The notes under the pieces were generated by a model. The model was not told the DNA's origin. It saw only the letters and a program-made list of their open reading frames with translations, and did not search any database. From Tortispora ganteri (Eukaryota), in the NCBI GenBank assembly GCA_003707115.1, contig PPNB01000003.1:310001-374000 (forward strand): a stretch of 64,000 nt of DNA, in the 5' to 3' direction. Positions 14,598 to 47,074 of the stretch are shown here, piece by piece (positions within the stretch are counted from its first letter, which is position 1; the number at the start of each line of letters is the position of its first letter). The translations under genes and the position numbers were made by a program.

Positions 14598-17552
14598 ATG
14601 GGTAAACGCACCGCGTCAAGTTGCTCTACCAATGTAAAACGGCGCAAATTTTGCAAAACCAGAATCAAAAATACTCACAGAAATCTGCTAAATAGTTATC
14701 CTTATAGACAAACGCTGGGTGTCCTTATACATAACACGTTTGGCGATCCTGACGCGATTGTATGGAATATCGTGAATCAATACGAGGTGTATTACAATGA
14801 ACCTTTTAACCCAGAAAAACTCTCTACAATAAATTTTTCAGGCACTGCAAATATCACTGAGATTCTTAGCAAAGCAGTAGATTATTGTGTTTGCACCAAT
14901 CAGAATAACATACTCTCCGTGTCGTTCTCATTCAGTCAACTGCACACGAGTCGACTTAAACAAACTTGGGAACCTGTACACATTAAAACTATTCGTGAAG
15001 AATTCAATTTTCTAATAAAAGCTTCTTCGCCTTTATTTGTTTACTGGTTGCTGACACGAACTGCTGTGATCCGCAGAGTGCAATCTGACAATTATATACA
15101 CATATGTGGGCCCCGTCTTACCTCTTCATTTTCTGCGAAACGTAATGCGATCTCCGCTAAACCAGCACCTATTTCTTTCTCGCAGACTGATCTCTTGAAC
15201 AGTCATTACTCTCCTTTAAATCCGAAGGTCGGTCCAAAAACGGAACCTATAAAAGAAAACTACTCCACACTTCTCCATCGCTCATTGTCTATCAACTACA
15301 GTGACCCTTCAGATCTCTTGGATCTTATTAAATTTGTGTTTCCAAAGGAAGTCTGCTTCTCGAGAGGGAAAAGTTCATCTTTCTCTGGAATCATCATACC
15401 ACCGCTAAAAACTTCGCAGTTTCCTCCAGAAATGCCGTCGCCTGAGAAACTTACCGACCGTATAAACAACTGCATCATTCCATTGCTGCAGCAGATATGC
15501 ATTAGGTACAAACGTACCAGATTTTATATGATCTTCAGGTATCATATGTGGGAAACGTGGCGTCAGAGAGGTATAGAGAGTGGCCAGATGAGAATTATTC
15601 CTGCAGAGTCTGTTTATCTCTTCGTTAAAGCATGCACAAAAGCTCTTTTTCCTTTTAGAACATTTGGATCAGACCATAATTGGTCTATTATGTTTTGTAA
15701 AATGAGAAAATTCATCTACTCACGCCCCATTTTCTCTTTTAAACTTCATGAAATAATGAAAGACATCCGCGTTACTGACATCTCATGGCTGGGAAATCCA
15801 ACTACATCAAAATTATCACTGCACGAATATGAAAAACGCCAAAGTATACTCTCTGAATTTATGTGCTGGTTCTTTCACATCTATTTATGTCAGGTTATAA
15901 GGGGCTACTTCCATGTTGCGTATTCTCGATCTTCTGAACATTTGCAATATTTTTTCCATGAAGATTGGGCGAGTACGTCCAACTCCCTTGTGAAAAATCA
16001 CTGCTCTGATCTGCTCACATCTACCAATATTGCTGGAAATAATGCATATACTAATATACTCTTCTCGGGCAAAAGTAATCCATCTCTTCGCCTCCCTTTT
16101 GGCCGTTTACGATTCGTCCCTAAAAACAACGGAACGGGTCTCAGAATGCTTGTTCCCGCTCTATCTGTACCTAAAGGAGACTATAAATCTGATCTGTATA
16201 AGTACAAAGAGTGCATATTTTTATTGCAGCGCATCCTCATACACGAATTTAAAACCAGTAACACATCTGTCACTGAACGGTTCGGGGCAGTGGCAGACTG
16301 CTGGCGATGTCTTCATAACTTTAAAGTCTCTTCTCCGAGTACCGAATATTATATGGTGGCTATGGATGCAAAGGATTGCTTCAACTCTCTTCCATTACCT
16401 TTAGTGGATTCTCTGCTGACTAGCTTACTTCGTAGCGAGAGCTATGATGTTTATAAATATCACGAGGTCCTTACTAATGAGTTCAGAACTGCTTTGAAGG
16501 TTTTGCATTCCGTTCTTCCTCGTATAGGCGCTAATACTGACGACTCTACAGAAGCCTTACTGTCTGAGTCGTCGTCAAATAGTGCCTCGGCTTCATACAA
16601 GCCTTTGCATAGAACTAACCGCATTTTGAGTCAGTTCGGTATTGCGAAAAATCCTCTAAAGGGCACCTCTGCCGATTTTGAATTGATAACAAGAGATTTT
16701 CTTGCGGCTATAATACATGCTCAGCTATACCAGAATAATGTATTGCATCGGAAACAATCTTACAGGTTTAAGCAAGGAGTACCTCAGGGATCTTCTCTTT
16801 CGGTTATATGCTGCAATGTATTGTATGCTGCCCTTGAACATGAATGGCTGGCTGATTTCATTCGTAACCCGAATGCCAAACTTATTCGCTACATTGATGA
16901 TATCCTATTTGTCACTACTGAAAAAGAGGTAGCTGAAGCATTTGTAGCTCGAGTTGAAGCTGGAAATGAAAAGTATAATTTTTACGTTAACTCAGATAAA
17001 ACAAAGCTCAATTTCTCAGATCTAGGTATCTTGGACAATGTTGGCATTTCCTTTCTAGGTCATACAATTGATTCTAAGACCCTAACTCCAACTCCGCGTG
17101 AGTTTAATTATTCTGGATATAATACTGGGCTGTTTCCGCTCAGTTTTGGTAATTGTCTCTATGAAGTTTTCTTGAAAACTAGAATATCGATTCTCAGTCT
17201 ACTTCAGACTGCGTTTGCCATTACATCATCTCAAAACTTCCTTTCTTTCTCATTATATTTGCGCAATTCATTTATATCACAAGGCTGGAAGTTGTTCTGC
17301 ACGTTAGAAAAGATACAGCCATATCCAGGAATGCTTAGCCTAGTAGCGCACTTTCGCAAACTCATTCTGCGCGTTTGCATGTATATACTTGGTCGCTCGA
17401 CGAACAGCTATAAGCTGGAAAGCTTAAGAAAGATTTGCATATTTGGTTTATTCAAAGCTATTGATGGGCCTCCTGGACGCATGGATACTTCAGTTTCGCG
17501 AAAATGCCTTTCTGGTGCGAAGACTTTGCGACGAGCAATTTCTCGAATATGA
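14598..17552 (+). CDS. EST2: Telomerase reverse transcriptase (TERT), divergent
   Basis: QFP-like (FPFRTFGSDHN), T region, motif 1 FGRLRFVPK, motif A MDAKDCF, B' GVPQGSSLS, C LIRYIDDILFVT, D VNSDKT, E SFLG; 984 aa, basic. Confidence 0.9.
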   Translation: MGKRTASSCSTNVKRRKFCKTRIKNTHRNLLNSYPYRQTLGVLIHNTFGDPDAIVWNIVNQYEVYYNEPFNPEKLSTINFSGTANITEILSKAVDYCVCTNQNNILSVSFSFSQLHTSRLKQTWEPVHIKTIREEFNFLIKASSPLFVYWLLTRTAVIRRVQSDNYIHICGPRLTSSFSAKRNAISAKPAPISFSQTDLLNSHYSPLNPKVGPKTEPIKENYSTLLHRSLSINYSDPSDLLDLIKFVFPKEVCFSRGKSSSFSGIIIPPLKTSQFPPEMPSPEKLTDRINNCIIPLLQQICIRYKRTRFYMIFRYHMWETWRQRGIESGQMRIIPAESVYLFVKACTKALFPFRTFGSDHNWSIMFCKMRKFIYSRPIFSFKLHEIMKDIRVTDISWLGNPTTSKLSLHEYEKRQSILSEFMCWFFHIYLCQVIRGYFHVAYSRSSEHLQYFFHEDWASTSNSLVKNHCSDLLTSTNIAGNNAYTNILFSGKSNPSLRLPFGRLRFVPKNNGTGLRMLVPALSVPKGDYKSDLYKYKECIFLLQRILIHEFKTSNTSVTERFGAVADCWRCLHNFKVSSPSTEYYMVAMDAKDCFNSLPLPLVDSLLTSLLRSESYDVYKYHEVLTNEFRTALKVLHSVLPRIGANTDDSTEALLSESSSNSASASYKPLHRTNRILSQFGIAKNPLKGTSADFELITRDFLAAIIHAQLYQNNVLHRKQSYRFKQGVPQGSSLSVICCNVLYAALEHEWLADFIRNPNAKLIRYIDDILFVTTEKEVAEAFVARVEAGNEKYNFYVNSDKTKLNFSDLGILDNVGISFLGHTIDSKTLTPTPREFNYSGYNTGLFPLSFGNCLYEVFLKTRISILSLLQTAFAITSSQNFLSFSLYLRNSFISQGWKLFCTLEKIQPYPGMLSLVAHFRKLILRVCMYILGRSTNSYKLESLRKICIFGLFKAIDGPPGRMDTSVSRKCLSGAKTLRRAISRI

Positions 17553-22061: not shown

Positions 22062-23543
22062 CTATTTGGTTTGCAAAGCAGCAGCAGCGGAAGTGACAGC
22101 AAAGGGACGAATATCAGTAGGTCGCTTGCCGAGAAGAGCCAATGGAACGATTCCAGAAACGTGCATGTCGGGACCGAAAATCTCCATAGGCAAATCCAAC
22201 TCCTCAGCACAAGCAGTGATAAGTCTCAGACCTTCTTGCCAGTTAGGTCCACCACGGCGAACGTACATGCGAACCTTGTGGGCATGAAGAAGCTGCTGAT
22301 ATTCCTTAAAGGCTCTAATAATACCTTTGAAAGTGGAACCGACTTGGGTAAAGTTAGCAATTCCACCTCCGATAAACAAAACCTTACCGTCTGGATGAGG
22401 AGTATCACGGGTCATGAGATCCAAAATAGTGCGAGCGTATTCATAAGTTTGGGTTTCAGTTGGCGCACCAGAATATTCGCCATAGTTAGCGAGCTCATCA
22501 GCAAATCCAGCAGAAGCAATAGCGTCGGCGTATACGACCGAAGCACCACCGCCAGCGACGAGAGTCCAGATGCGGCCTTTTGAGTTAAGAACGGTGAGTT
22601 TCAGAGAAGCACCGGTTTTAGCATCGAGTTCGGCAATGTAAGCCTCCTCCTTGCTAAGTTCGCGACCGAATGGAGCGGGAAATTCCATAGGAGGACCTTG
22701 GTCGATATTAGTGATCGACTGAGACTGGGGAGCGCTAGCGATACCAAGGGCTGTATCTGAACGAGCAACAGCCCATTTAGCACCACACTCAAATTCTGCA
22801 GTTTGATCTAATTTAGCAGCGAGATCTAAATACTCGACAGCGACAGTGCCATCGGGTTGAGGAATGACGACGAGTGGGTTAATCTCGAGATATGTGAACT
22901 GAAGATCGACGTAGACAGCATAAAGGCGGTTTATGAAGTCAAGGAGGACAGAACGCTGTTCCTGCGGGATGTTTTGAAGCAAGGCTTTTTCTAGCTCTTC
23001 GTTAGATGGATAGTTTTTGAGGTCTACAGGGATGAGAATCTTGGAAGCCTTTGCGTCAACATCACCAACATCCACGCCTCCCTCGTGGTAGAAGAGGATC
23101 CAATCGCCTTCGCGGACCGAGTTGATGTTGATATAATACTCCTGGTCCTGTGAGTGAGGAACAAAAGGTTCTATGAGGAAGGAATGAAGCGGGGCTGAAA
23201 TGGAACCAACCGACACTTCTTTGTTGGCACGCTCGGCGACCCATTGCTTAGCCTCGGGCCATGTCTTGTTGAGTGCGACAAGGCCAAGTTTGCCTCTGCG
23301 CTTAATGAGTTGGTCAGGTTTAGCAACAAGTCGCTGTTCGGGGCTGAATACCCAAGGGAACTTTTGTTCGGCTTCGGCGAAAATAGCGTCAGCAGAGTTA
23401 CCGCTGTCGAAACGCAGAGGCACAAGTCTGGGAAGGGACGAGAAAGTAGTTGACGGTTCAGAATCGCTGTACACTTTAGACCTGCTAAGGAAATAGGCAA
23501 GAAGGGCCTTTCCATCGGCTTCATAAATTGATTTGGCTGACAT
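22062..23543 (-). CDS. ACL2: ATP-citrate lyase, ATP-grasp (beta-type) subunit
   Basis: MSAKSIYEADGK (ATG 23543), KPDQLIKRRGK, VAGGGASVVY, NYGEYSGAP, GGGIANFT. Confidence 0.97.
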   Translation of the reverse strand: MSAKSIYEADGKALLAYFLSRSKVYSDSEPSTTFSSLPRLVPLRFDSGNSADAIFAEAEQKFPWVFSPEQRLVAKPDQLIKRRGKLGLVALNKTWPEAKQWVAERANKEVSVGSISAPLHSFLIEPFVPHSQDQEYYININSVREGDWILFYHEGGVDVGDVDAKASKILIPVDLKNYPSNEELEKALLQNIPQEQRSVLLDFINRLYAVYVDLQFTYLEINPLVVIPQPDGTVAVEYLDLAAKLDQTAEFECGAKWAVARSDTALGIASAPQSQSITNIDQGPPMEFPAPFGRELSKEEAYIAELDAKTGASLKLTVLNSKGRIWTLVAGGGASVVYADAIASAGFADELANYGEYSGAPTETQTYEYARTILDLMTRDTPHPDGKVLFIGGGIANFTQVGSTFKGIIRAFKEYQQLLHAHKVRMYVRRGGPNWQEGLRLITACAEELDLPMEIFGPDMHVSGIVPLALLGKRPTDIRPFAVTSAAAALQTK

Positions 23544-24616: not shown

Positions 24617-26566
24617 ATGCCTTCCACTGCCCCTCAGTCTGCTGACGCCAATATCAGGCGCTTCGAACCTCCCACTGCGGCATCGTCTCCCGCACCAAAC
24701 TATCAGCTCTTCCACGCTAAGACCCGTGCTTTCGTCTATGGCCTCCAGCCGAAGGCCTGCCAGGGTATGCTCGACTTCGACTATATCTGTCGCCGAACTA
24801 CTCCTTCCGTGGCCGGTATCATTTACCCCTTCGGAGGACAATTCGTCTCCAAGATGTACTGGGGTACCAAGGAGACACTCCTCCCTGTCTACCAGGAAGT
24901 AGAGAAAGCCGCCTCTAGACATCCCGAGGTCGACGTCGTTGTCAACTTCGCTTCCTCTCGCTCGGTCTACTCGTCCACAATGGAGCTTTTGGAATACCCA
25001 CAATTCAGAGTAATTGCTATCATTGCTGAAGGTGTCCCTGAGCGCAGGGCGCGTGAGATTCAGCATCGCGCACAAGAGAAAGGTGTCACCATCATCGGCC
25101 CCGCGACTGTCGGAGGAATCAAGCCTGGTTGCTTCAAAATCGGCAATACTGGCGGTATGATGGACAACATCGTCGCATCTAAACTTTACCGTCCTGGTTC
25201 TGTCGCTTATGTCTCAAAGTCTGGCGGAATGTCTAACGAACTTAACAACATCATCTCTCATAACACTGATGGTGTTTACGAAGGTGTTGCTATTGGAGGT
25301 GATAGATATCCTGGTACAACCTTCATCGATCATATCCTTCGCTTCGATGCCGATCCCAACTGCAAAATTATCGTGCTCCTGGGTGAAGTTGGTGGTGTCG
25401 AAGAGTACCGTGTTATAGAAGCTGTCAAGAATGGTATAATCAAAAAACCCATTGTTGCTTGGGCAATCGGTACGTGTGCCTCTATGTTCAAGACCGAAGT
25501 CCAGTTTGGACACGCCGGCTCATTCGCTAATTCGCAACTTGAAACTGCCGTTACTAAGAACCAGGCAATGCGAGACGCTGGCTTCCATGTCCCAGACACT
25601 TTTGAGGAACTTCCATCTGTTCTTGCTGCTGTTTATAAAGATCTCTTGGAAAAGAAAGTTATCGTTCCTGCTGCCGAGCCTGAAGTTCCCAAAATCCCTA
25701 TGGACTACTCTTGGGCCCAAGAGCTCGGACTCGTTCGTAAGCCTGCAGCCTTCATTTCTACTATTTCTGATGATCGAGGCCAAGAATTGCTCTACGCTGG
25801 CATGCCTATCTCGGACGTTTTCAAGGAGGATATAGGTATAGGAGGCGTCATGTCTCTCTTGTGGTTTAGACGTCGCCTACCCGTGTATGCTACCAAATTC
25901 TTGGAGATGGTCCTCATGCTTACTGCTGATCATGGTCCAGCTGTCTCAGGTGCTATGAATACTATTATTACTACTCGTGCAGGTAAGGATCTCATTTCTG
26001 CACTTGTTTCTGGTCTTTTGACTATTGGTGAACGTTTCGGTGGCGCCTTAGACGGTGCTGCTAATGAATTTTCTGCTGCCTATGACAAGGGTCTCTCTCC
26101 TCGTGAGTTTGTTGACACTATGCGCAAACAGAATAAATTGATTCCAGGAATTGGCCATAAAGTAAAATCTCGCAACAACCCCGACTACCGCGTCGAATTG
26201 GTTAAGGAATATGTTCGTAAGAACTTCCCCAACTGTTCAATGCTCCAGTATGCTCTTGCTGTCGAGACTGTCACTACTAGCAAGAAGGACAACCTTATTC
26301 TTAACGTCGATGGATGCGTTGCTGTCTGTTTCATAGATCTTTTACGCAATTGTGGTGCATTCTCTGCTGAAGAAGCGGAAGATTACCTCAGAATGGGTGT
26401 CCTAAACGGCCTTTTCGTGCTAGGCAGATCTATTGGTTTAATTGCTCATTACCTAGATCAAAAACGTCTTCGGACTGGTCTTTATCGTCATCCTTGGGAC
26501 GATATTACGTACATGTTGCCTGATTTGCCCGGTAGTGGTTCTTCGCGTGTTGAAGTCAACATTTAA
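24617..26566 (+). CDS. ACL1: ATP-citrate lyase, CoA-binding/citryl-CoA lyase (alpha-type) subunit
   Basis: [20 protein letters not shown], phospho-His [28 protein letters not shown]. Confidence 0.97.
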
Positions 26567-34931: not shown

Positions 34932-35441
34932 CTTTTTGTTTAAATTCTTCTTGGTCGAATAACATTCCTCAGTTTTTCTTTAATCGACTGAAAGAATGGT
35001 TGTAAGACATAGACTCCATAGGGGTCTAAATATGAAGCTACGCGGTTTGACGAATCTCCAAAAAGTCTCATATTCACACCTTGCAATAGTTAATTTTATG
35101 CTTGGTGATATGTCTCTATTGAAGTATAGAGACATATATATTAAATTACAGTTACTGCTGTCTGGCGCTTAAAACCGTCGATTTATATACGAAAAAGAAT
35201 ACAGTGAGTTTGACCTGTTGTATGTGGAATTGACTTTTAGTAAATCTGCACCTTCGCCAATTGGCTGCCTCTTACATTTCGACAGCACTTCGACGATACC
35301 TAGTCTATAAATTATTCGATCTATATTAAATAATGCAACTCATTTATTATATATATAATCTTATAGCAAACCTGCCATCGACAATTCTTCTAGGACGGCA
35401 GAGATCAATCCGGGTAACGTTCTCCACAAAACCTTATCTAT

Positions 35442-38231
35442 ATGGTGATGATAGATCCACCAGAAACATTGATGGAGGCAGATAACATAGATGGCTTCCC
35501 CCTTCATGGATCTGTAGCTCCTTCTTTGGACATTCTTAGTTCTGACTCTTTTATGAACTCAGATGCTGTTCCTCCAGATACTTCTATGCCTCCTAACGCC
35601 TCTAAGGACACAATGGTCAAGTTCACCATTTATGAAACATCTAAACATTGGTACATTGTTGCCTCCAATTCTGATGAATCTCGCTTTAGATGTCTTGTAA
35701 TTGATCTACTCGATTCTAATTACAACCTTTCTATACAAGAGAACTACATGATATATAATACAAAGTCAATAGGCTCCTATATTGACAACGTACGCAAACA
35801 CAATCCTGACTCGTTTCGTAAACGCATATCGGCATGGGGTCTAGTTGGATTTATACGCTTTACTGAACATTATTATTTATGCATTATTACCAAGAGAAGC
35901 CGCATAGCTATGCTAGGCGGGCATTACATTTACCATATAGATGCCACTGAGTTAATCCCTGTTTGTTATTCTCCCTCATATCACACCCCTGACAGGAAAT
36001 CGGAGGAGGCGAGATTCCTCTCCTCTTTTCATAATCTGGATTTATCCCGCACATTTTATTTTAGTTACTCTTACGATGTCACCAGCACACTTCAAAGTGT
36101 TCTAACTAAAGCTCGCAGGGCTGATGCAAGGCACTTGCACCAGTCTTCTGTAGCCGATTTTAACGACATGTACATGTGGAATCATCATTTGCTTGAGCCG
36201 TTTATTTCCAGCTGTACTCAACCTTTTGTATGGTGTGTACCAATAATTCATGGCTTTGTGGATCAAGTGAACTTGGGTGTTTACGGCAAGAACATATATA
36301 TCACCATCATTGCTCGAAGATCTCGTTATTTTGCTGGCGCTCGATTCCTCAAGCGAGGTGTGAACGACGCGGGGTATGTCGCAAATGAGGTTGAAACTGA
36401 ACAAATAGTTGCTGATATGTTGCTTTCTTCTTTTCACGATCCTAGATATGGCCAGTTCTCTAGTAGTAGATATACTTCTTTTGTTCAGCATCGCGGTAGT
36501 ATTCCGCTATTTTGGAATCAAGATACATCAGGAATGACTCCTAAGCCTCCGATTGAGCTGACTTTAGTTGATCCTTATTTCCGATCGGCAGCTTTGCATT
36601 TTGACGATCTATTTCGTCGATATCATACCCCGATTATTGTTCTAAATTTGATAAAGACGAAGGAACGCAACCCTCGCGAATCAATCCTGCTAGGAGAATT
36701 TGAACAGTGTATTGCCTATCTGAATCAGTTCTTGCCCCCCGAAAATAGAATTCTCTACACTTCCTGGGATATGAGCAGGGCTTCTAAGAGCGATGGGCAG
36801 GAGGTAATTAGCTTCCTAGAAGAGTACGCTGGACGTGTTCTCAATTCTGTTGGCTTTTTTCATAATGGAGGGGAGAAAGATCGGTTACAGCGCGGAGTTT
36901 GTCGTACTAACTGCATTGATTGTCTTGATAGAACAAATGCTGCACAGTTTGTCATTGGTAAAAGGGCATTGGCGTTTCAGCTTAAGGCGTTGGGGGTAAT
37001 TAGAGATACAGACATCCCCTATGATTGTGATGCTTCTAATCTTTTAACTGAAATGTTTCATGATCATGGTGATACTATTGCCTTGCAATATGGTGGCTCG
37101 CATCTTGTGAACACTATGGAGACCTATCGCAAACTCAATCAGTGGAGCAGTCATTCGAGAGACTTGGTCGAGTCTATAAAACGCTTTTACAGTAACTCTT
37201 TTGTTGATGCTCAACGTCAAGAGGCCATAAATCTTTTTCTCGGAAATTACGTCTGGGAAAAGGGGAAAGAAATGTTGTGGAATATGCCTACAGATTATTA
37301 CCTCCATCATAATAACGCTGTCCACATATCATCTTCTAAACGCCGCAGTTACAGGGTATGGTGGATTCCTCGAAATTTGTTTCCCTTTCCTGTTGAATTA
37401 AGATTTCCTGCCCCCATAAAACCTTTAAGTAATAGCGACTATTACGATGAATTTTACAGACCTCTTACATTGACTGCATTGCATAGCGAATACGCTAGTC
37501 GGATGAATTCATCTGTGAAATACCTCAACTCTTCAGTAGGCCAAACCCTGTTGGGATTAAAGGGCGGTTTAAGCCCGTTTGTTGTAAGAGGTGGACCTCT
37601 TGGTGATAATTCCGTGCTGCGCCTTGAAGGGCAGATAGATCCTAGAATTGTCGCAAAGACAAAAGAGGGGAAATCAAGGAAACAGAGGCATAAATTTGGT
37701 CAAAACATAGGTATTCGGAGCTGGTCTAAACTTTTACCATTACATTTGGGTAACCACAGAGCATCTGCAGCATTTGAGCCTATTCCTGATGCTACAGGGG
37801 GCAAAGCCATTGATGGAAAGTTTGCAGAAGCTCTTCCTGTGACATCCTCTACGCTGCAAAGCCTTACGAAAACTCCTGCGTGGGCTGCGAACCCGAATGT
37901 TATTCGTGCTGTGGAGCAAAGTCTGCAGCCATCATTAGATTCATTCGAGTTGAAGGAGTACGAGAAGTACGTTCAGCATCCATTAAAACTGTCGCAGGTT
38001 GCAGCAGTTATTGAGGAGAAGCCTAGTTCTTATGAAGAATTTGAACAATACGTGAAGAATAAAACCAGCGTATTTTCAGTGTACTCCTTTGGTGTGCATA
38101 ATGAATCTCTTGAGATATACGAAAAGCACGTGAATACCGAATTTCGAGCATTTTCAGAAGACGATAAAAAGAGTAAGCTGTATTCGAATTGGCTTATTCC
38201 ATATACTTGGCCTAGTACATTATCAGTCTAG
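35442..38231 (+). CDS. FIG4: PtdIns(3,5)P2 5-phosphatase (SAC domain)
   Basis: FYFSYSYD, ARRSRYFAGARFLKRG, VANEVETEQI, catalytic RTNCIDCLDRTN, HGDTIALQYGGS. Confidence 0.96.
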   Translation: MVMIDPPETLMEADNIDGFPLHGSVAPSLDILSSDSFMNSDAVPPDTSMPPNASKDTMVKFTIYETSKHWYIVASNSDESRFRCLVIDLLDSNYNLSIQENYMIYNTKSIGSYIDNVRKHNPDSFRKRISAWGLVGFIRFTEHYYLCIITKRSRIAMLGGHYIYHIDATELIPVCYSPSYHTPDRKSEEARFLSSFHNLDLSRTFYFSYSYDVTSTLQSVLTKARRADARHLHQSSVADFNDMYMWNHHLLEPFISSCTQPFVWCVPIIHGFVDQVNLGVYGKNIYITIIARRSRYFAGARFLKRGVNDAGYVANEVETEQIVADMLLSSFHDPRYGQFSSSRYTSFVQHRGSIPLFWNQDTSGMTPKPPIELTLVDPYFRSAALHFDDLFRRYHTPIIVLNLIKTKERNPRESILLGEFEQCIAYLNQFLPPENRILYTSWDMSRASKSDGQEVISFLEEYAGRVLNSVGFFHNGGEKDRLQRGVCRTNCIDCLDRTNAAQFVIGKRALAFQLKALGVIRDTDIPYDCDASNLLTEMFHDHGDTIALQYGGSHLVNTMETYRKLNQWSSHSRDLVESIKRFYSNSFVDAQRQEAINLFLGNYVWEKGKEMLWNMPTDYYLHHNNAVHISSSKRRSYRVWWIPRNLFPFPVELRFPAPIKPLSNSDYYDEFYRPLTLTALHSEYASRMNSSVKYLNSSVGQTLLGLKGGLSPFVVRGGPLGDNSVLRLEGQIDPRIVAKTKEGKSRKQRHKFGQNIGIRSWSKLLPLHLGNHRASAAFEPIPDATGGKAIDGKFAEALPVTSSTLQSLTKTPAWAANPNVIRAVEQSLQPSLDSFELKEYEKYVQHPLKLSQVAAVIEEKPSSYEEFEQYVKNKTSVFSVYSFGVHNESLEIYEKHVNTEFRAFSEDDKKSKLYSNWLIPYTWPSTLSV

Positions 38232-39767
38232 CAATAATATATCCATAAACTCCCTTTTCAGTGATATTAGATCTTGAGTGAACGATTCTTCTCTCACTAT
38301 CGCATCTAGTATTTGAAATATATATTGGATTTTCTGTTTTGAGTTTTCACTTATGCTAGAGTTTTCTTCTGAAATTGTCCTTTGACGGTACACCAAGCAG
38401 CTGTCGACAATATCGTACTTATATTGGTTAATTCTCGGCCAAGCAGTTTTAATAAGGCTTGTGAGCGCGTTTAGTGCTGAGTCTGCTAGTTCAGGGCTGG
38501 CTGTAATGAATGGATCAGCTAGGGTCTTCAACGGTATGTCCAATAGAGGCATCAAATGACGGATAATATAGATACCCATGGTGTCACAATAAATGGGAAT
38601 CTGATTAAGAATCAATATATGTATTGAAAGATTAGTGCCTGCCATGTTGTAAATTTTCAGCAATCCTTGCCGGATCACTGTTTCATCTAGCTGTGAAATA
38701 ATTTTGTCCTTTTGGAGATGTAGTGACTTTTTGGCCAAGCTATTGGCACACTTGAACGTGGCAGTAAGAAGAGCTGTAGACTCACTGGCTGGGGTCATTG
38801 GTGGTATAAAAGACATGTAATTTTGAATAGATTCCCAGTAAACATTATGGATGCCAGTTTTAGTCCAAAACTGATCCGAGATTACATCCAGCAGAGACTC
38901 GATGGCTATGCAACCTTGTATTCTGAACCAGGAATTTGTGTCATCTAGTAGATTGAGTGTTATCATTGTTATATCACGCCAATTGTTTTTAACCTGCGGT
39001 TCTGTGAGTAATGCTAGTACCGCAATAAAAATAGGCACACCCCAGTATCGTTGTACTAGTGCAGGGTCGCTTTCTTCTGTCGCATCATAAGTGCGGGGCT
39101 CTGTTAAAGAAAGTAATGGAACCTCTTTAGATATTCCAGAATTTAGTGGCTTAGTCTGTGCTTTGATATTTTTGAAGATCGGTACAACAATCTGCATGGT
39201 GATTGAACTTGCCTCTTCAGCAGATGCCATTATATTCAGAATGGGTTGAGGAGACTCAGAGGTCCAAGGGGCATCTGAACTGGCCCAAGCATTAATCATT
39301 AGAGACACTTTCGGATTAAATGATAAATTATGTGTATATAGGTTATTGGCAAGCTTCGTTGCTGCAGAGAAACAGCGAGTGAATGCCAACTGAACTGGCG
39401 ATGGTTTTCTGGTGAGACCTTGAGAATCGACATCGAACTGATTGATCCAGACTATAGGTATTGGTTTCATTAGGTGTGACAGTGCAAGTTGTAACTGATT
39501 TGATTCTTCATTACGTAAATCTGTATCTACTGATGTTAGAATAGAGTCGAAGATAGTAAGATACTGAGACAGTTTGTTGTAGAAAGACTGATCATTGAGA
39601 GTGGAAGGAGATTCTAGTGGAGCCGGTTCGACTAATGATTCAAGGGTTGTCGATAATTCTCTAAACCAGTGTTTATCTCGTTCTATGGTATCCAAATTGT
39701 CTACTGTAGCTTTCTCATCTATTGTAACTCCATCAAGGAATTGTTTCAGTAAAACATTCAATAACAT
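38223..39767 (-). CDS. TTI2: Tel2-interacting protein Tti2-like (ARM-type)
   Basis: LNLLDD..FRIQGC, TGIHNVYWESI, LADPFIT, LIKTAWPRI patterns resemble the Tti2 family; first ATG 39767. Confidence 0.75.
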   Translation of the reverse strand: MLLNVLLKQFLDGVTIDEKATVDNLDTIERDKHWFRELSTTLESLVEPAPLESPSTLNDQSFYNKLSQYLTIFDSILTSVDTDLRNEESNQLQLALSHLMKPIPIVWINQFDVDSQGLTRKPSPVQLAFTRCFSAATKLANNLYTHNLSFNPKVSLMINAWASSDAPWTSESPQPILNIMASAEEASSITMQIVVPIFKNIKAQTKPLNSGISKEVPLLSLTEPRTYDATEESDPALVQRYWGVPIFIAVLALLTEPQVKNNWRDITMITLNLLDDTNSWFRIQGCIAIESLLDVISDQFWTKTGIHNVYWESIQNYMSFIPPMTPASESTALLTATFKCANSLAKKSLHLQKDKIISQLDETVIRQGLLKIYNMAGTNLSIHILILNQIPIYCDTMGIYIIRHLMPLLDIPLKTLADPFITASPELADSALNALTSLIKTAWPRINQYKYDIVDSCLVYRQRTISEENSSISENSKQKIQYIFQILDAIVREESFTQDLISLKREFMDILLLD

Positions 39768-40020
39768 GCGAACCAAAAGCAGCAAGGTGTAATGAGAAGA
39801 TGGTAGGCTGAAGTCCCCAATTTCCCAATCAGGACAACTACATAGTTAAATGCACCTTTTTGTTGCGTTTTATCAGAACAATATAATTTTATGAAAATGA
39901 CAAGATATATTTATATAAATATATTAAACATTAAAACCCCAAAGTAAGTACAAAAGAATATCAATTACTATTATCACATAAGAAGGAAAGGATGGCGGGA
40001 GGATAGTGGTGGGTGCAGGC

Positions 40021-40411
40021 AGAGTTCGACTATTGCGATATGTTACTTTCCAAGAGTCTTTGTCAAAATAAACTCTGGCACCATCCTAAGTCAGTCTGTT
40101 GGCTGAGAGGATGTTTATATTTCCTAATTCAGGAAATGTGCGTACTTTGGAGAGTTTCAATGTACGATAGCCTTGAAGTGCAAGTGCTGTCGAACCAATT
40201 AGGTCTGAGAATGTGTTGTATCCTCCAAACTGCATATTTATGCCGTTTGCGCGTTCGACTGTCTTTTAAAGCATTGTCCACCACTTACGCGAGCAGATGC
40301 ACCACTGTCAAAGATCCAAACATTTCACGATGAGATTGTCTTTCGGTTTTGATGGATGCATTGAGCGTAGTAAATTGCAATGTGACAGGATCAAATTTCG
40401 GATTCCACAGT
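40021..40411 (-). pseudogene. Decayed copia-type aspartic protease (pol 5' remnant)
   Basis: WIFDSGAS (DSG at 40309-40301) in the gag frame after TGA stops; then a shifted frame VERANGINMQFGG...LKLSKVRTFPELGNINILSANRLT*DGARVYFDK. Confidence 0.8.
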
Positions 40412-41590
40412 TCAGGGACTCGATTTTTGGGACGAATTTTGCTTTGATTTGGATCGATCAAGGGCGTGACATTCTTGGGCAGAGTGTCCTTGTTTGAAGC
40501 AGAATTTGCACGTGATTGGACCAGCAATATTCCGATTTGAGCGACCTCGTTTCTTCTTGGAATTCTTGGAGATTTTATACGAGGATACAGGCTGATTTTG
40601 ATGAAGTACAAACGGCCTGGAAGTTGTCGAATTGCCACTGTTATGGTAAAATTTGGCACATTGAAAATATCTGTCAGTGATTGACTGTATAGAAGGGGCA
40701 CGCTCACCTCTTTTGTAAGCCTCGTCCACTTCATCAGTCATTTTCGAAACTATCTCTGACACAGAGAAGTTTGTTGGCAGGATTTGCAACAAGTGATTGA
40801 TGACAGTGTAGTTGTAGCAAGGCTTAAGAGTATAGATTCTACGTGCCATTATCAAGTACTCTCCCACTGCATCTGTTACTTCTTTAAAGGTTGGATTAAA
40901 GTTGTTAATCCTAAAAGACATGATTTGAGTCATCAAGTCATCAGCAGCTTGTCCGCTTGAGGCATAAGTACCAATGCACGCTCTGTACATAATTTGACGC
41001 AAAGTTGGAGTAGTATGTCCACGAATTGTGCCCAGTTGATTGGCATATTCAGGCGGGCCAGATAATTGGCGTTCAATTTGGTTTAGAGAACTTGGAGTGA
41101 TAATTTCAGAAAGAACCAATTTGGCTTCATTATGTTCAATAAAACGCCAATCTCTTGGAAGTCTTAGGCCATCAGTGGAAATGATTGAATGTTCTTCCAA
41201 ATAAGGATCTTCGTGTATCCAACGAGAAAGCTTTGAATTACCTTGGCTTGAATTTTTAAGATAAAGTCTTCTTGTTAAGAGAGCCAAAACATCGACATAG
41301 GTTTCACCATTTAGAACACATGGTTTCTCGTTGAGGGGATAGGGAAATTTAAGTCCTTTTCTTAAAGAGATAGATAAGTTTTTGGAGTTGATCTGTTCAA
41401 GTTTTGTTATTGCTTCGGAAGTGCTATAAAGATCATGAATTTCTTCTCGAGTTAGCAAGGCAGGGTCAGAAAGACGTGAGGATGCTGTAGGAACCTCAGA
41501 TGCTTCTGAAGCATCAAGGTTATTGTCTGCTCCGGTTGAAACTTCTTCACCTTGAATGTTGCGACGGCCACGTCCTCGAGTTTCAGTCAT
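40412..41590 (-). CDS. Retrotransposon Gag-like protein, 392 aa, with CX2CX4HX4C zinc knuckle
   Basis: ATG 41590 lies 7 nt after the PBS; uninterrupted ORF; basic linker KKKRGR then CKFCFKQGHSAQEC. Confidence 0.85.
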   Translation of the reverse strand: MTETRGRGRRNIQGEEVSTGADNNLDASEASEVPTASSRLSDPALLTREEIHDLYSTSEAITKLEQINSKNLSISLRKGLKFPYPLNEKPCVLNGETYVDVLALLTRRLYLKNSSQGNSKLSRWIHEDPYLEEHSIISTDGLRLPRDWRFIEHNEAKLVLSEIITPSSLNQIERQLSGPPEYANQLGTIRGHTTPTLRQIMYRACIGTYASSGQAADDLMTQIMSFRINNFNPTFKEVTDAVGEYLIMARRIYTLKPCYNYTVINHLLQILPTNFSVSEIVSKMTDEVDEAYKRGERAPSIQSITDRYFQCAKFYHNSGNSTTSRPFVLHQNQPVSSYKISKNSKKKRGRSNRNIAGPITCKFCFKQGHSAQECHALDRSKSKQNSSQKSSP

Positions 41591-41610
41591 TGATATTTCG
41601 GCTTTTAACC

Positions 41611-42044
41611 TGTCGGAAAACTTAGATTGGTATATCTTAACTTTAGGGTTGTGAGCACGATGAGAGAAACTACCTGTAAGTACGTGAAGTATCAAGAAGA
41701 GAGAAACCTTGACCTGTAGTGAAGTTGGGGCTAAAACCCTCTGATCGGTACGTTATTTAGATAGAGTAAGATGAGTTAGTGATGCAGATGTCTAAATCTG
41801 CTGAGAAGTGATTCTCCTGTCTTCAATTTTTCTCGCCTGGTCAGGGACAATTTTGATATCTATTTATAACGTTAGTGGGTATCTGAAGGTTACGCCACTA
41901 AAAGTGGATCAAAGAATTATTTTAGGTTCTCTAGTGTGTGATACGAGAGAGCTCAGAAGTATGCATTGGAAGACTGTTGCTAAGGGCATAGTTCCGGAAC
42001 CTTAAACCTAGCACTGCAACTCCCATTCGCAGCCTTGCATGACA
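41611..42044 (-). repeat. 5' LTR of the gag element (gag-proximal end firm; distal end tentative)
   Basis: TGTC...GACA termini; TATAAATA on the minus strand at 41868-41861; similarity to the second copy at 42078-42493. Confidence 0.7.
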
Positions 42045-42077
42045 TAAGTCGAACCCGCTTCGTATACAAATACGAAA

Positions 42078-42493
42078 GCATACTTCTGAGCTCTTTCGGA
42101 TCACACACTAGAGACCTCAAAAAAAAAAGGGCTTATGCACATCGCATAATGATGTACTAAACACATAGTGGTGTGATTATACGAATCCCACTGAATATTA
42201 TAGATAGACGTCAATTTGTCTTTGATCAAGAGACAGAGATTGAATAGTCAACAAGCGTACAGTGACAAGCTTCAGTTCAAAGTCTAGCTTAAGACACAGA
42301 CCGCTCCCCTGCAGATTAAGACATCTGCATTGCTAAGTCAGTGTACTTTATCAAGAATATTGTACGACAAGAGGTTTTTAGCCCAGACTCAACTCCGTGT
42401 CAAGGTTTCCCTCTTTCTAACACTTACACGCAGTTTCTCTCATTGTGCTCAAAACCCTAAACAACATTACCATATCCGGGTAGTATTCCAACA
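42078..42493 (+). repeat. Diverged solo/partial LTR of a related family, inverted relative to the first
   Basis: Reverse complement aligns collinearly to 41611-41965 (CTCTAGTGTGTGAT, GAGCTCAGAAGTATGC, TGAGAGAAACT, GAAACCTTGAC, TTTAGGGTT); ends TTCCAACA; no PBS after it. Confidence 0.75.
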
Positions 42494-43680
42494 GTATGCT
42501 GTTATAGATCAGCAGGTTCAACTTTCATTTCAGAAGGTCAGGTGAAACAATATTAGTACTAAATTCACGATCTGCAACTTGTGACCCTGAAAACCGCCTT
42601 CTAACACTTTCAGCAACTAAAGTTGTGCCTGGAACTGTAACACTAGCGGAGTGGAGGTCAATCGTTGCCTTCAACGCGACTTCCGTCACTTCGGAATGAA
42701 CTGTAAGACGCGCTATATTTCTCATAGGAAAAGATCGAATATAGTTAGCCAAACACTCCCGGCCAAGAGCATTTTTATAGCTGTGGTTGGCATTGAACGG
42801 AACTCAATAGCTTTGCCGTCAAGGCCAAAGCAGTCCTGAAATGTTAACATGACAGCATAATGTATACACTAAATCAGAATTAAAACTTTATTTTCACCAT
42901 GATCATACGGAATCTTTTTATATTTTCGATCTAAGTTTTGATTTTCCCGCACAGCCCCGTATGACGATTGCAGCTTTCCTTCACGCTATCTAGATCTGCC
43001 TCAAATTAAAGGGCTCAAATCGAAGCAACACAAAATCAAGGGCACCTGTAAACGTATAAAGAAATCATTATGCATTCTTCGGCTACGAATATTTTTTTTT
43101 TAGCTTAACACATTTCTATAGAAGAATGTTTAGGCAACAGCTTAAAATTCCTTATTAGCCGGCAATACAACACCTTGCCGCTCCTGTTTCCAATGAGCGA
43201 GGTCAAAGAAGGTTAACTTTACCCTTATATTCCCTCATTGCATGCACCGAGCTCTTTCTATTGGCTAAATGTCAATTTTTAGTCCCATTTTCATAGTCAA
43301 AAACGCGCTTCTGCAACTCTATCTCTTTAAATGTTACGCTTTATTTCCACATATAGATATACTGCATCCCGGCATCTTTGACCGTCACGCATTGATATAT
43401 TGCTGTAAAAAAGTGCAACGTCCTGCTCTTCGCTGTACACACACCAATAAACCAAACCTTTCGCCATCTCCTGTCTACGCTGGACCCAAATTCACCTCTT
43501 TGTGCTAATTAGGGTCTATTCTGTACAGCTTTAGAACCACTAAACTAAAACCCCTGGATACTGTATCTGCCTGTACGCAGGGTTCATTTCTTCTCGGAAA
43601 CACCCTCGATTGCATCTATATTATAAGAACCTAACGCACTTGGTATTAGAAAAAACTACAATTTCAACTCTTACAGCACA

Positions 43681-44952
43681 ATGTTCTGGTCTGTCATATT
43701 ACTCGCTTGCGCAGTATTCTGCGCCTCTGTATCTAATTTACACACACCCGCGCTCTTGCTTACGCGAAGAAGCACCAAGTTCGACAAAATGCGCGGCGTG
43801 AATCTAGGTGGCTGGTTTGTACTTGAACCATACATGAACAATAACCTGTGGAATGAGTTTACTGATGCATCTAATATACCTGTGGACGAGTATCACTTCT
43901 GCTCATACTACGGCAAAGATACAGCAACCGCGAAGCTAACCAACCATTGGGATACTTTCTACACCGAGTCCGACTTTGTTCAAATCAAGGCCGCAGGTCT
44001 TAATACTGTAAGAATCCCCATCGGATACTGGGCTTTTGGGAACTTTTACGACGAGCCTTATGTCCAGGGCCAAGTCCCCTTTATTCTCCGTGCCTTGCAA
44101 TGGGCTCGCAACCAAGGACTGGAAGTAATGTTAGATCTGCACGGCGCCCCCGGATCTCAGAACGGTTTTGACAACTCCGGCCTTCGTGATACTATTCAAT
44201 TCCCTTACGGAAGCAACCCCGATTATACACTGACTGCTCTTCAGCGTATGGTCAACATGGTGTTCGATAATGGCTACAGCGATGTTGTCACTTCCGTTGA
44301 GATTTTAAACGAGCCTCTTGCACCTTCCTTTTCTGGCGATGCCCTCGCAATGCTTAAGGACTTTTATCAAAAGGGCTACAATATTATCCGCTATCGCCCC
44401 GACGGGACTATGACAGACCTGACTGTCGCTTTTCACGATGCTTTTTACGATCCTGCAAGCTGGAACAACTATCTTCCTGCCTTTGCAAACTCTTATGAAG
44501 ATAATCACCACTACCAAGTATTCACCCCTGACCTAAATGCTCTCACTATTGATCAGCACGTTGGAATGGTCTGTGGGCATTATTACGCCTTGAAAGCCGT
44601 CAATTTGCCTGTCATAGTGGGTGAGTGGTCTGCCGCCCTAACCGACTGCTGTCCTATGCTGAATGGCGTTTATAGAGGTGCTCGTTACGATGGTACTTAC
44701 GGTGGAGGCTGGTGGATTGGCGATTGCTCAGATAAATACGATCCTGCCAAGATAACCGGTGACTATTACAACAATATGAGAAGGTTCGTTGAGGTACAGT
44801 TAGATGCATGGGAAAAACTTGGCGGTTGGATTTTCTGGGCATGGAAGACAGATCTGTGTGCTGAATGGAGCTTTCAGAAGCTTCTTGCAATGGGAATCAT
44901 GCCCCAGCCTCTGACGACCGATCGCAGATATCCTAACCAATGCAACTTCTAA
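43681..44952 (+). CDS. Secreted GH5 exo-1,3-beta-glucanase (Exg1 family)
   Basis: Signal peptide; RGVNLGGWFVLEP, RIPIGYW, DLHGAPGSQNGFDNSG, catalytic NEP and VGEWS. Confidence 0.95.
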   Translation: MFWSVILLACAVFCASVSNLHTPALLLTRRSTKFDKMRGVNLGGWFVLEPYMNNNLWNEFTDASNIPVDEYHFCSYYGKDTATAKLTNHWDTFYTESDFVQIKAAGLNTVRIPIGYWAFGNFYDEPYVQGQVPFILRALQWARNQGLEVMLDLHGAPGSQNGFDNSGLRDTIQFPYGSNPDYTLTALQRMVNMVFDNGYSDVVTSVEILNEPLAPSFSGDALAMLKDFYQKGYNIIRYRPDGTMTDLTVAFHDAFYDPASWNNYLPAFANSYEDNHHYQVFTPDLNALTIDQHVGMVCGHYYALKAVNLPVIVGEWSAALTDCCPMLNGVYRGARYDGTYGGGWWIGDCSDKYDPAKITGDYYNNMRRFVEVQLDAWEKLGGWIFWAWKTDLCAEWSFQKLLAMGIMPQPLTTDRRYPNQCNF

Positions 44953-45152
44953 CAGTTGTGATCGAGATATGTGTTTCAACTCATCGAAATCTTTATATAT
45001 CTTGAAGGAAGATCACTAATATTCCTTATTTGAGAGTCTTAATTCGCCTCTTTTATTTTCTATTTATTATTCACTGCTTAATGATACATACACAGAATCA
45101 TATTCCTTGATATTCATCTAGTACCCAGTTTCCCTAGCAATACATGTGTCCG

Positions 45153-46460
45153 TTAGAATAGAAAGCTCTTTCGTCGATCAGTATAATACTGAGACGACGC
45201 AGCTAATGATCGTAGACGCTGGACTGATTCTGATGGGTCCATGGTCACACCTCTTGAGGACTTTCTTCGGGTCTCAACGGTCTCTGGCAATACAAAGACA
45301 GAAGATTCGGATGTTGAGATGGAACCAGCTGTATATCCTGGACTTTCGCTGGTAATAATAGAAGCAGAAGCAGACGGAGGGTTAGATAAAGGTTGCAAAC
45401 CTTCCGAAAGCCTGGAATTACTTAGAGGTCTTACTGGCGTCTGGAAACGACCCGAAGCAGATCGAGAGATGCTAACGTCAGCAGGTGAGTCAAACGCTGT
45501 TGTAAAGTCATGGAATGTTCGATCGAGATCAGGGGTTAACACAAAATCCCCAGACTGTGCTTCGCTAGTGCTGTGATTTACGGGGAAAGATGTGGCAGTA
45601 GTAAGCTTGGCTGGCTCAGTAAGATCAACAAAAGTTAAGTCATCGCGGGGCATAACGGGTTCATAAGAATTTGCCATTTGCATAATAGAAGTTAATGACG
45701 TAGAAAATAGATCACAAATTGTATGAGCATCCATATTTCGCGAATTGAAATAGGAAACAATTTCTTTGTATTCAGCTGTTGATTCAGGCACAATTTCACC
45801 AGTAGTACATTTAATTTTGATCAGGCTGTCATATAATGTGGACAGAAGCAAAGAGTTATCACTTTTCAAGTTCGAATAGGTCGAAAGCAAGTCAGAATAG
45901 CATTTTAGGATATTAGGGTCGGTCACTGTAGTTCTCATTGGAGGGCATGTTACTAGCACATTTCTTTTGGACGAGCGTGCTTGATCTTTCCTGATTCTGT
46001 CTTTTAGGCTGACTAGTTCCTTATTCTTCGCCCTAATTTCTGTAGCCCACCTATTTCGATTGTTTTCCATTTGCGACTGGAATCTTTCAGATATCTTTTT
46101 TAGTTCATCGCTGTACTGTTTGGAAGTCATCGCTTCAGACTTCGATTGTCTAAGCTGAGACTGCAGACTTCTAACCTGATTCTGTAACTTATCAACTTCT
46201 TCTGATAGTGCCTTAATTGATTTAGAATTCTTATATATCGATAAATTGGAGTCATGTAGTATTCGCTCTTCTTTGCGCTTTGTTGACTGTTCCTGCTCGT
46301 TTAAGATCTTGTAAAGGATACGCAAAACGCGCAATGTATCTCTTTTTGATTTGTCCGAATGAGAAAACGACTTAAAATCAATAAAATCTTCAAACCTTAA
46401 GTACCCTTGAGAAGCGAAATAGTTATTCACATAGGCTTCTAAATCGGATAATTCGCCCAT
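45153..46460 (-). CDS. Coiled-coil protein, ADIP/Msd1/TinA-like spindle-anchoring family
   Basis: N-terminal YVNNYFASQGYL..IDF followed by a long coiled coil; Ser/Thr-rich tail. Confidence 0.6.
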   Translation of the reverse strand: MGELSDLEAYVNNYFASQGYLRFEDFIDFKSFSHSDKSKRDTLRVLRILYKILNEQEQSTKRKEERILHDSNLSIYKNSKSIKALSEEVDKLQNQVRSLQSQLRQSKSEAMTSKQYSDELKKISERFQSQMENNRNRWATEIRAKNKELVSLKDRIRKDQARSSKRNVLVTCPPMRTTVTDPNILKCYSDLLSTYSNLKSDNSLLLSTLYDSLIKIKCTTGEIVPESTAEYKEIVSYFNSRNMDAHTICDLFSTSLTSIMQMANSYEPVMPRDDLTFVDLTEPAKLTTATSFPVNHSTSEAQSGDFVLTPDLDRTFHDFTTAFDSPADVSISRSASGRFQTPVRPLSNSRLSEGLQPLSNPPSASASIITSESPGYTAGSISTSESSVFVLPETVETRRKSSRGVTMDPSESVQRLRSLAASSQYYTDRRKSFLF

Positions 46461-47074
46461 TAGTGGTTGTTTATTTACTTCGATCTAGCAGCTTTTACCA
46501 GCCTGTATGAAGTTGGGAGTGCAATTTGTACTGACCAATCTGAAAGCGTATACTTTGTTGCTATGGAGGAAAGGCACCTTACATGATTTTTTTTTTGTGA
46601 ACCAGTAGTCTATATAGTGCTTTTGAAAACGGCATTTACTGCTAAATTCTTACCCTGAAAAGACATTTATCGAATCTCTTTAGAGTACTTAAGAAAATGA
46701 ATAACAAGGACGCCGTCACCAATGGAAACGAAAACAGCATACTCTCTACTGTTTGGCAAATAGTTCGATCGCCAGACGTCTCACCGATTATCTGGTCCGG
46801 TTTCTGCTTTATAGCCGGAATAGTGTTTATCAAATCCCCTATGATGGATGCCGCTGTTCCTCCTGTTTAACGAGATACTGTAAATAAAATATACGACAAT
46901 AGGAATACTTCAAGTAGCATGTACTCCAGGCGGACAGTTTATTGTAGTCGGGCGTTGCCCTCACAGGCGTTTTTCGGGTTACACCTCGATCGGCCTACAC
47001 GAATTACATCATTTGTTAGGAAGGTATATCTAAAAACAATATCGATTCAAAAAAAATCTATCAAATCAGTGCAG

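Follow-up and report, generated by a model that had tools for sequence, protein, structure and literature searches.

An open gag frame in the remnant of a Ty1/copia-type retrotransposon between TTI2 and a GH5 gene in Tortispora ganteri

The locus and its features

The window analysed here is a 64,000-nucleotide stretch of a contig of the yeast Tortispora ganteri. The source assembly comprises 9.6 Mb in 1044 contigs, and copy counts taken from it are lower bounds as it is incomplete. The remnant of a retrotransposon sits between TTI2, which shares 82% identity with T. caseinolytica CANCADRAFT_44857, and a GH5 gene. None of nine window proteins looked up had an exact counterpart in the protein collection, and the host is, with this TTI2 identity, a species other than the annotated strain. 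The features of the locus are listed below in window coordinates.

38223-39767, minus strand: TTI2, flanking host gene (Pfam PF10521)
40005-40028, minus strand: scrap of the integrase-RT linker (about 25 nt), brought next to the protease through the loss of about 1.1 kb of internal sequence (alignment)
40029-40411, minus strand: Gag-protease linker and protease remnant, with a D-S-G motif at 40309-40301 (DNA alignment with four open copies)
40412-41590, minus strand: open gag frame of 392 codons, the 5' part of a former single gag-pol frame (reading of the ORF)
40469-40510, minus strand: CCHC zinc knuckle, codons 361-374, C-X2-C-X4-H-X4-C (sequence, aligned with the knuckle of the open copies)
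41597-41610, minus strand: primer-binding site (PBS) of 14 nt, complementary to spliced tRNA-Lys(UUU) in its anticodon arm
41611-41958, minus strand: downstream 348 bp of the 5' LTR, with TATAAATA at 41868-41861 (best other copy 75-81%)
41964-42493, plus strand: nested solo LTR of the same family, 530 bp, inverted in the 5' LTR (77-79% to the best other copy along most of the solo LTR)
42494-42606, minus strand: upstream 113 bp of the 5' LTR (89-90% to the start of the L030 and L031 3' LTRs)
43681-44952, plus strand: GH5 glycoside hydrolase, flanking host gene (Pfam PF00150)

The remnant was compared with contigs of runs X1 and X2, which are possibly one data set and possibly related to the source of the window. 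No differences were found over 40190-40657 and 40937-41581, and the TAG region described below lies in these contigs on a piece that is joined to TTI2. Gag and the lesions are repeated exactly in these pieces, and assembly error in the window was accordingly rejected as the origin of the lesions. The comparison is uninformative on selection (no differences in 891 nt of gag and about 13 in approximately 10 kb of flanks). The roughly 13 differing sites lie within 35407-47000, and the window may accordingly be another strain or carry base errors.

Elsewhere in the window, the genes for both ATP-citrate lyase subunits lie head to head (22062-23543, minus strand; 24617-26566, plus strand). The RVT_1 match at 14598-17552 belongs to a telomerase RT gene and has nothing to do with the element.

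The retrotransposon family

The window copy aligns to the first 519 residues of L028, a relative whose frame, like that of L029, extends uninterrupted for 1407 codons across protease, integrase and a copia-type RT to the end of its contig. L011 and L003 likewise have 747 and 736 open codons, respectively, up to their contig ends. Judged from these frames, the family has a single gag-pol frame. The domain order in L028 is Pol_BBD, gag_pre-integrs, rve and RVT_2, and the open relatives thus provide the PR-IN-RT-RH order and the copia-type RT of Ty1/copia elements (Pseudoviridae). LTRs with TG...CA ends, a PBS after the 5' LTR and 5-bp target duplications (at the nested LTR, L033 and L011/L034) are also present, although the window copy's own duplication is lost. 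The RT-RH region shares at most 43% identity with any of the 120 database matches listed, and a literature search by title for Tortispora and retrotransposons returned nothing on the family. We regard it as a Ty1/copia family with a single ORF, from a Tortispora-like yeast, that is so far undescribed.

The L011 5' LTR (2249-2787) and the L034 3' LTR (639-1177) agree at all 539 nt, and their 5-bp flanks match as well. Going by this identity, they bound a single full-length insertion of very recent date, and the family is recently active.

Other copies are damaged in different ways. L030:4165-7869 (about 176.7-180.4 kb of C1) has lost approximately 210 capsid codons in frame and retains a 1223-codon frame that is open through protease, integrase, RT and RNase H. 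L031:3371-5677 is a broken copy consisting of LTR, gag, a deletion, RNase H and LTR; its gag is open for 359 codons with two late stops, and its RNase H remnant carries one stop and one frameshift. The L031 deletion begins at the residue where the gag frame of the window stops, although the deletions of the two copies differ. In the pol-less L032:3700-4484 gag is open for 222 codons, and the stops of both L031 and L032 pile up towards the 3' end. The window copy, L031 and L030 belong to one LTR subfamily (89-90% over the first 113 bp). Within this subfamily, L030 is a mirror image of the window copy.

These partial copies suggest one alternative view of the window copy, which we consider unlikely: that it comes from a gag-only, non-autonomous lineage in which the protease decayed while the element was mobile with Pol from full copies and gag served its own RNA. 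The window copy would then be a late landing that was later truncated, with L031 and the capsid-less, pol-open L030 as complementing partial elements. The shared LTR subfamily and the in-frame capsid loss of L030 with pol left open are consistent with this, and plant TR-GAG elements, which have two LTRs, are reported to transpose in Arabidopsis (PMC8704663). The window copy resembles them in having an LTR, a PBS, a single open gag and no usable pol, with autonomous relatives in the genome; it differs in retaining a protease remnant and in lacking a second LTR around a gag-only interior, as neither a 3' LTR nor a PPT is now present. L031 is closer to that structure, although its deletion is not that of the window copy. 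A search of the genome with gag, as proposed with the original prediction, found seven other places at 54-66% identity. No sibling with the same lesions was found: none of the five other protease matches (76-83% identity, in open copies) carries the lesions of the window copy, a count that is a lower bound in 1044 contigs.

The gag frame

The original prediction described an undisabled 392-codon gag with a perfect CCHC knuckle, and both were confirmed: no stop or frameshift interrupts 41590-40412, and the knuckle is found at codons 361-374. The frame begins at the start codon that the family itself uses, extends past the knuckle and corresponds to a full-length capsid and nucleocapsid. It ends at a TGA at 40414-40412. 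Since the relatives have a single gag-pol frame, this TGA is the first lesion of the copy and no natural end of gag. The prediction had begun its list of lesions after gag; the frame is open as it said, but the codon that closes it already counts among the nonsense lesions. A proline codon precedes this stop, and the +1 frame is open for 43 further codons; a +1 frameshift at this position was nevertheless rejected because the family has one frame and because the stretch, open solely in the interval bounded by two frameshifts that cancel, ends short of a complete protease.

In its own genome the gag matches seven other places at 54-66% identity (eight matches among nine candidates, including itself), several of which run on into pol without a stop; identity to the open copies is 54-65%. 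One outside homologue was found, the 330-residue T. caseinolytica protein ODV90060 (one match among 3,552 candidates and one in 1.84 billion representatives). This protein is annotated as gag, stops just before the knuckle and is missing about 22 internal residues.

Searches by profile and fold add little. No Pfam family matched the window gag at E 0.01, and a profile search returned only the Drosophila copia VLP protein (E = 0.02) over the knuckle region. Neighbours in the ESM Atlas include zf-CCHC and copia-gag clusters at 0.90-0.93, which serve as leads only. AlphaFold runs on seven and five sequences gave weak models (pLDDT of 35 for the whole gag and 50 for codons 190-320, with six helices). 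With these models, Foldseek gave no matches at E <= 0.001, and the best hits in a VIA fold search (Z of up to 5.8) were unrelated helical proteins, with no capsid among the 50 rows listed. A metagenome scan gave 37 pattern matches, none of which was confirmed.

The protease remnant and the 3' end

Alignment with the four open copies places three stops after gag (TGA at 40393, TGA at 40327 and TAG at 40088) and three frameshifts at about 40373, 40342 and 40265. Together with the TGA at 40414, this amounts to four nonsense codons and three frameshifts in approximately 385 nt. The frameshifts at about 40373 and 40342 cancel, so that the stop at 40327 had looked in frame. Two TGAs, a frameshift and a TAG had been predicted for the protease; the three stops are as described, while there are three frameshifts instead of one and seven lesions in total instead of four. 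Reassignment of stop codons was rejected as an explanation, since TGA, TAG and frameshifts all occur and the host genes read normally. The remnant is 76-83% identical to the five other copies. The three frameshifts lie in short runs.

At about 40029 the internal deletion of approximately 1.1 kb removes the integrase; the element then breaks off, and host sequence common to the sister species picks up again at about 40004. No RT, RNase H, PPT or 3' LTR of the element is found in the 64-kb window, in agreement with the predicted absence of integrase, RT, RNase H and 3' LTR. An origin from a spliced subgenomic cDNA was considered and rejected because the ends of the deletion are not GT-AG.

The 5' LTR and the primer-binding site

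The 5' LTR (42606-41611) is 461 bp long, has TG and CA ends with the PBS directly behind it, and is split after 113 bp by the inverted solo LTR. The latter has lost its 5' terminal TG and lies between the two halves of a 5-bp target duplication (41959-41963 and 42494-42498). The 5' LTR had been predicted to keep its TATA box. The box is indeed there, and the first ATG that follows it is that of gag; the LTR, however, is not whole, and the nested LTR separates the upstream U3 from the box. Transposition does not pass on the 5' U3, so the window copy had already landed when the nested element inserted and was reduced to a solo LTR. Dating by LTR changes at invariant columns (10/114 for the outer and 19/124 for the nested LTR) was dropped because the open copy L028 itself scores 8/60.

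Of the four gag copies embedded in scaffolds, three have an inverted LTR or LTR piece immediately upstream of gag (41964-42493; L030:8277-8783; L032:3513-3646), and in both the window copy and L030 it lies approximately 100-115 bp inside the 5' LTR. The family's own LTRs may serve as its insertion targets. None of six family loci has tRNA genes nearby; one lies far away within the window.

The PBS, predicted to be intact, is identical in the window and in five of the seven other copies examined. All 14 of its nucleotides match the anticodon arm of tRNA-Lys(UUU) across the intron junction (gene L044:1472-1558, with a 14-nt intron at position 38). The complementarity is thus to an internal tRNA segment and not to the 3' end, and from this match the family seems to be primed by a half-tRNA-Lys(UUU). 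Some Candida elements reportedly use internal parts of other tRNAs, and we therefore do not claim half-tRNA-Lys priming as new. By titles, nothing was found in the literature on half-tRNA-Lys priming or on Gag cis preference in yeasts.

The site in related species

The original prediction called for a test for a syntenic copy between TTI2 and the GH5 gene. In a sister species (organism B, run X3) both genes lie on one contig of 118,765 nt, which differs from the window by 8.1-8.7% over three mostly coding blocks. The aligned blocks are 974 nt apart, compared with 3,360 nt in the window, and the contig joint skips 40004-42746. As the short side of this joint is only 29 nt, the spacing is the stronger argument for an empty site. 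Pieces of the family are present elsewhere in organism B at 85-90%. The element is absent from the TTI2-GH5 site in this species, where it may conceivably have been lost. A further run, X4, covered 2 of 30 bins and is uninformative on the site. In T. caseinolytica the gag homologue ODV90060 is 1,193 accession numbers away from its TTI2 (ODV91253). Accession numbers usually follow gene order, and the homologue is by this measure probably not adjacent to TTI2. No syntenic copy was therefore found, and the locus is limited to the species of the window among those examined. A domesticated gag would be expected at the same locus in related species, and it is not seen there.

Together with the single gag-pol frame of the relatives, in which the end of gag is a lesion, the empty site in organism B and the displaced homologue in T. 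caseinolytica point to the reading that we favour with moderate confidence: the window copy is a copia insertion confined to this species, now decayed, with a gag that happens to be open. The element landed between TTI2 and the GH5 gene, an internal deletion took its integrase and a truncation all that lay 3' of it, and its 5' LTR received a second family member, of which a solo LTR was left behind. The whole remnant, gag included, would then have drifted without protein selection for roughly 0.045 substitutions per site, with the gag frame by chance unhit so far and the short protease part taking more than its share of lesions. If the LTR still fires, the product would be an orphan full-length Gag without a selected job; of the six sequencing runs listed, none is of RNA. 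The open 1223-codon frame of the damaged L030 is in keeping with a decayed insertion, as it makes open frames in damaged copies less than unique.

Selection on the reading frame

That selection kept gag open while pol decayed was the central claim of the original prediction. The placement of the lesions speaks for it: none of the seven hits gag, and all are crowded into the final quarter of the remnant (P = 2.6e-5, or P = 5e-4 when they are counted as three stops and two frameshift events). Decay was modelled by splitting the tip branches into an active and a neutral part. A single neutral time of 0.045 substitutions per site (95% interval 0.010-0.062) fits both halves of gag and the protease. 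At this age the probability of no stop in gag is 0.17 (0.10-0.15 with frameshifts counted), which a decayed insertion accommodates. The probability of at least four stops in the 122 protease codons is only 0.003 (0.02 for three), which decay at the fitted time leaves unexplained. A protected gag frame is preferred to plain decay by a likelihood ratio of 30-50, although both models fit the protease surplus poorly. The contrast is due as much to the surplus of protease lesions (P of about 0.003-0.02) as to the lack of lesions in gag (P of 0.10-0.17). Moreover, the window copy was picked from many relics for looking extreme, and with a prior of a few percent for a protected frame, which is our own judgement, the odds are near even.

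The lesion placement, the likelihood ratio and the surplus of protease stops are the main points for a second alternative, which we regard as doubtful: that the gag is a young, host-kept gene. An LTR-driven Gag ending near the Gag/protease boundary would co-assemble with active Gag-Pol and spoil or dilute the particles; selection may hold the frame open, tolerate or favour amino-acid change, and have favoured stops that cut off the protease. The knuckle, PBS and TATA box are all intact, a point against plain decay. Two other pol-less copies are open at their 5' ends, L031 with no stop before codon 360 (P = 0.05) and L032 with none before codon 223 (P = 0.38); this pattern and the start of the L031 deletion at the end of the window frame sit less easily with plain decay, and the pattern and the knuckle-less homologue of 330 residues in T. 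caseinolytica are points for a host-kept Gag. Recently active targets exist, as the identical L011 and L034 LTRs show. A search for Piwi domains (Argonaute) gave no candidates in this incomplete assembly, weak evidence that RNAi may be missing and hence a weak point in favour of a host-kept Gag. The nested LTR, in contrast, cuts the upstream U3 off from the TATA box, and the element is missing from the site in the sister species.

The contrast between gag and protease could also reflect a difference in age, with gag refreshed by recombination or gene conversion and the protease an older, dead sequence. The gag is itself a mosaic: in sliding windows codons 171-360 are 85-95% identical to L031, while codons 1-170 are closer to L003. 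The substitutions in the protease, however, give it an age no greater than that of gag (best estimate 0.019, upper limit about 0.065), and we consider this explanation very improbable.

Selection on the Gag protein

The window and L031 have a common 3' half of gag (dS of 0.086), which would suit a gag-only lineage. Over codons 171-360 the two differ by 11 synonymous and 46 non-synonymous changes, a ratio of 1.33. When the changes are polarised with three outgroups, two synonymous and 17 non-synonymous fall to the window and four and 21 to L031, with 13 unresolved; the gag of the window has thus changed much like that of a broken copy, as expected of a decayed insertion.

Codon models were fitted to four or five copies; L029 and L011 were omitted as near-duplicates of L028, and L030 because most of its capsid is missing. 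The branch to the window has a dN/dS of 2.19 over codons 171-380 (P = 0.28 against 1; P = 0.013 against a background of 0.43) and of 0.88 over codons 1-170 (P = 0.75 against 1; P = 0.28 against a background of 0.55). In the protease the branch value of 0.45 is not significantly different from 0.26. Where the other copies agree, pN/pS is 0.71 for the window compared with 0.12 and 0.28 in two open copies (Fisher P = 0.07). At amino-acid columns common to three other copies the window differs at 29/162, compared with 27/162 and 25/160 for open copies. As the window differs no more than the open copies do, the protein is not grossly degraded.

The changes peculiar to the window gag look neutral, and there is no purifying signal since the split from L031, the branches being short and the power low near 0.8. 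Purifying selection after insertion, as expected of a domesticated gag, is thus not seen, which counts against a host-kept Gag; the dN/dS test proposed for gag returned values not below 1. The original prediction is borne out by the contrast in lesions, whereas dN/dS and the site in the sister species, both among the refuting conditions that it had named, speak against domestication. The elevation of dN/dS over the active background in codons 171-380 also argues against a mobile gag-only lineage, although the three protease frameshifts in short runs would fit copying errors in one. L030, although open, is partly relaxed (0.49 compared with 0.20 in PR-IN and 0.22 compared with 0.16 in RT-RH), so that the fitted neutral times may include mild changes from a still-mobile phase.

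Comparison with known systems

The original prediction invoked the p22-type copy-number control of Ty1. According to one report, p22 arises through internal transcription of an intact element and has the same sequence as the C-domain of its target; p22/p18 and Drt2 need a closely matching dimer surface and poison the lattice because their capsid N-domain is missing (PMC13709905). The window frame resembles p22/p18 in encoding a Gag-derived protein that could disturb particle assembly. In contrast to p22, however, it is a full-length capsid and nucleocapsid rather than an N-terminally cut C-domain, and it is 54-65% identical to the open copies. It therefore fails the anatomy of p22 and Drt2, although an internal transcript could still yield a C-domain product. 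The parallel does not hold as drawn, which weakens the case for a host-kept Gag; a dominant-negative or dilution effect of the window Gag is possible.

DRT2, the Ty1' relic 2 of Saccharomyces cerevisiae, is a closer precedent. It has stops in its 5' half, retains only the capsid C-domain frame, is intact in 40/40 strains, is transcribed and is shown to restrict, with a dN/dS of 0.84, and is absent from some lineages (PMC10951436). A true restriction factor can thus have a dN/dS of this size, be species-limited and be lost in lineages, which supports a host-kept Gag and tempers the case for a decayed insertion. Like DRT2, the window copy is a truncated gag segment of approximately 1.2 kb among solo LTRs, species-limited and beside an active subfamily (PMC10951436). 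Unlike DRT2, it has the whole gag open with its knuckle, its dN/dS is not below 1, and it is known from sequence alone at one locus in at most two assemblies.

A wider proposal, which we put forward only tentatively and think unlikely, is that this yeast, apparently without Argonaute, restrains a young copia family by host-kept gag remnants, with full-length Gag acting as a dominant-negative or stoichiometry poison and with L031, L032 and ODV90060 as repeated captures. Budding yeasts would then have acquired a Drt2-like system twice, independently and in distant lineages, here with the whole capsid instead of the C-domain. If the frame is host-kept, Gag-based restriction of transposons would have arisen again far from Saccharomyces and would be seen at a very early stage of domestication, with the donor family, the sister copies and the empty site of the sister species all at hand for comparison. 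The fungal genes Crtg12-13 are anciently co-opted gag genes, syntenic across families and under selection (PMC8321522). The window gag is likewise of Ty1/copia origin in a fungus, whereas its locus is absent in the sister species and the LTR, PBS and protease debris are still present.

Taken as a decayed insertion, the window copy is of minor importance except as a record of a copia family that is undescribed, recently active and seemingly primed on a half tRNA-Lys. Hemiviruses are primed by a short tRNA segment (PMC8515867), and the family resembles Hemivirus-type elements in its single gag-pol frame of order PR-IN-RT-RH, CCHC knuckle, 5-bp target duplication and anticodon-arm PBS. A plant survey lists half-tRNA-Met and half-tRNA-Ile as the only half-tRNA primers (PMC6317226), whereas the primer of the present family would be tRNA-Lys(UUU).
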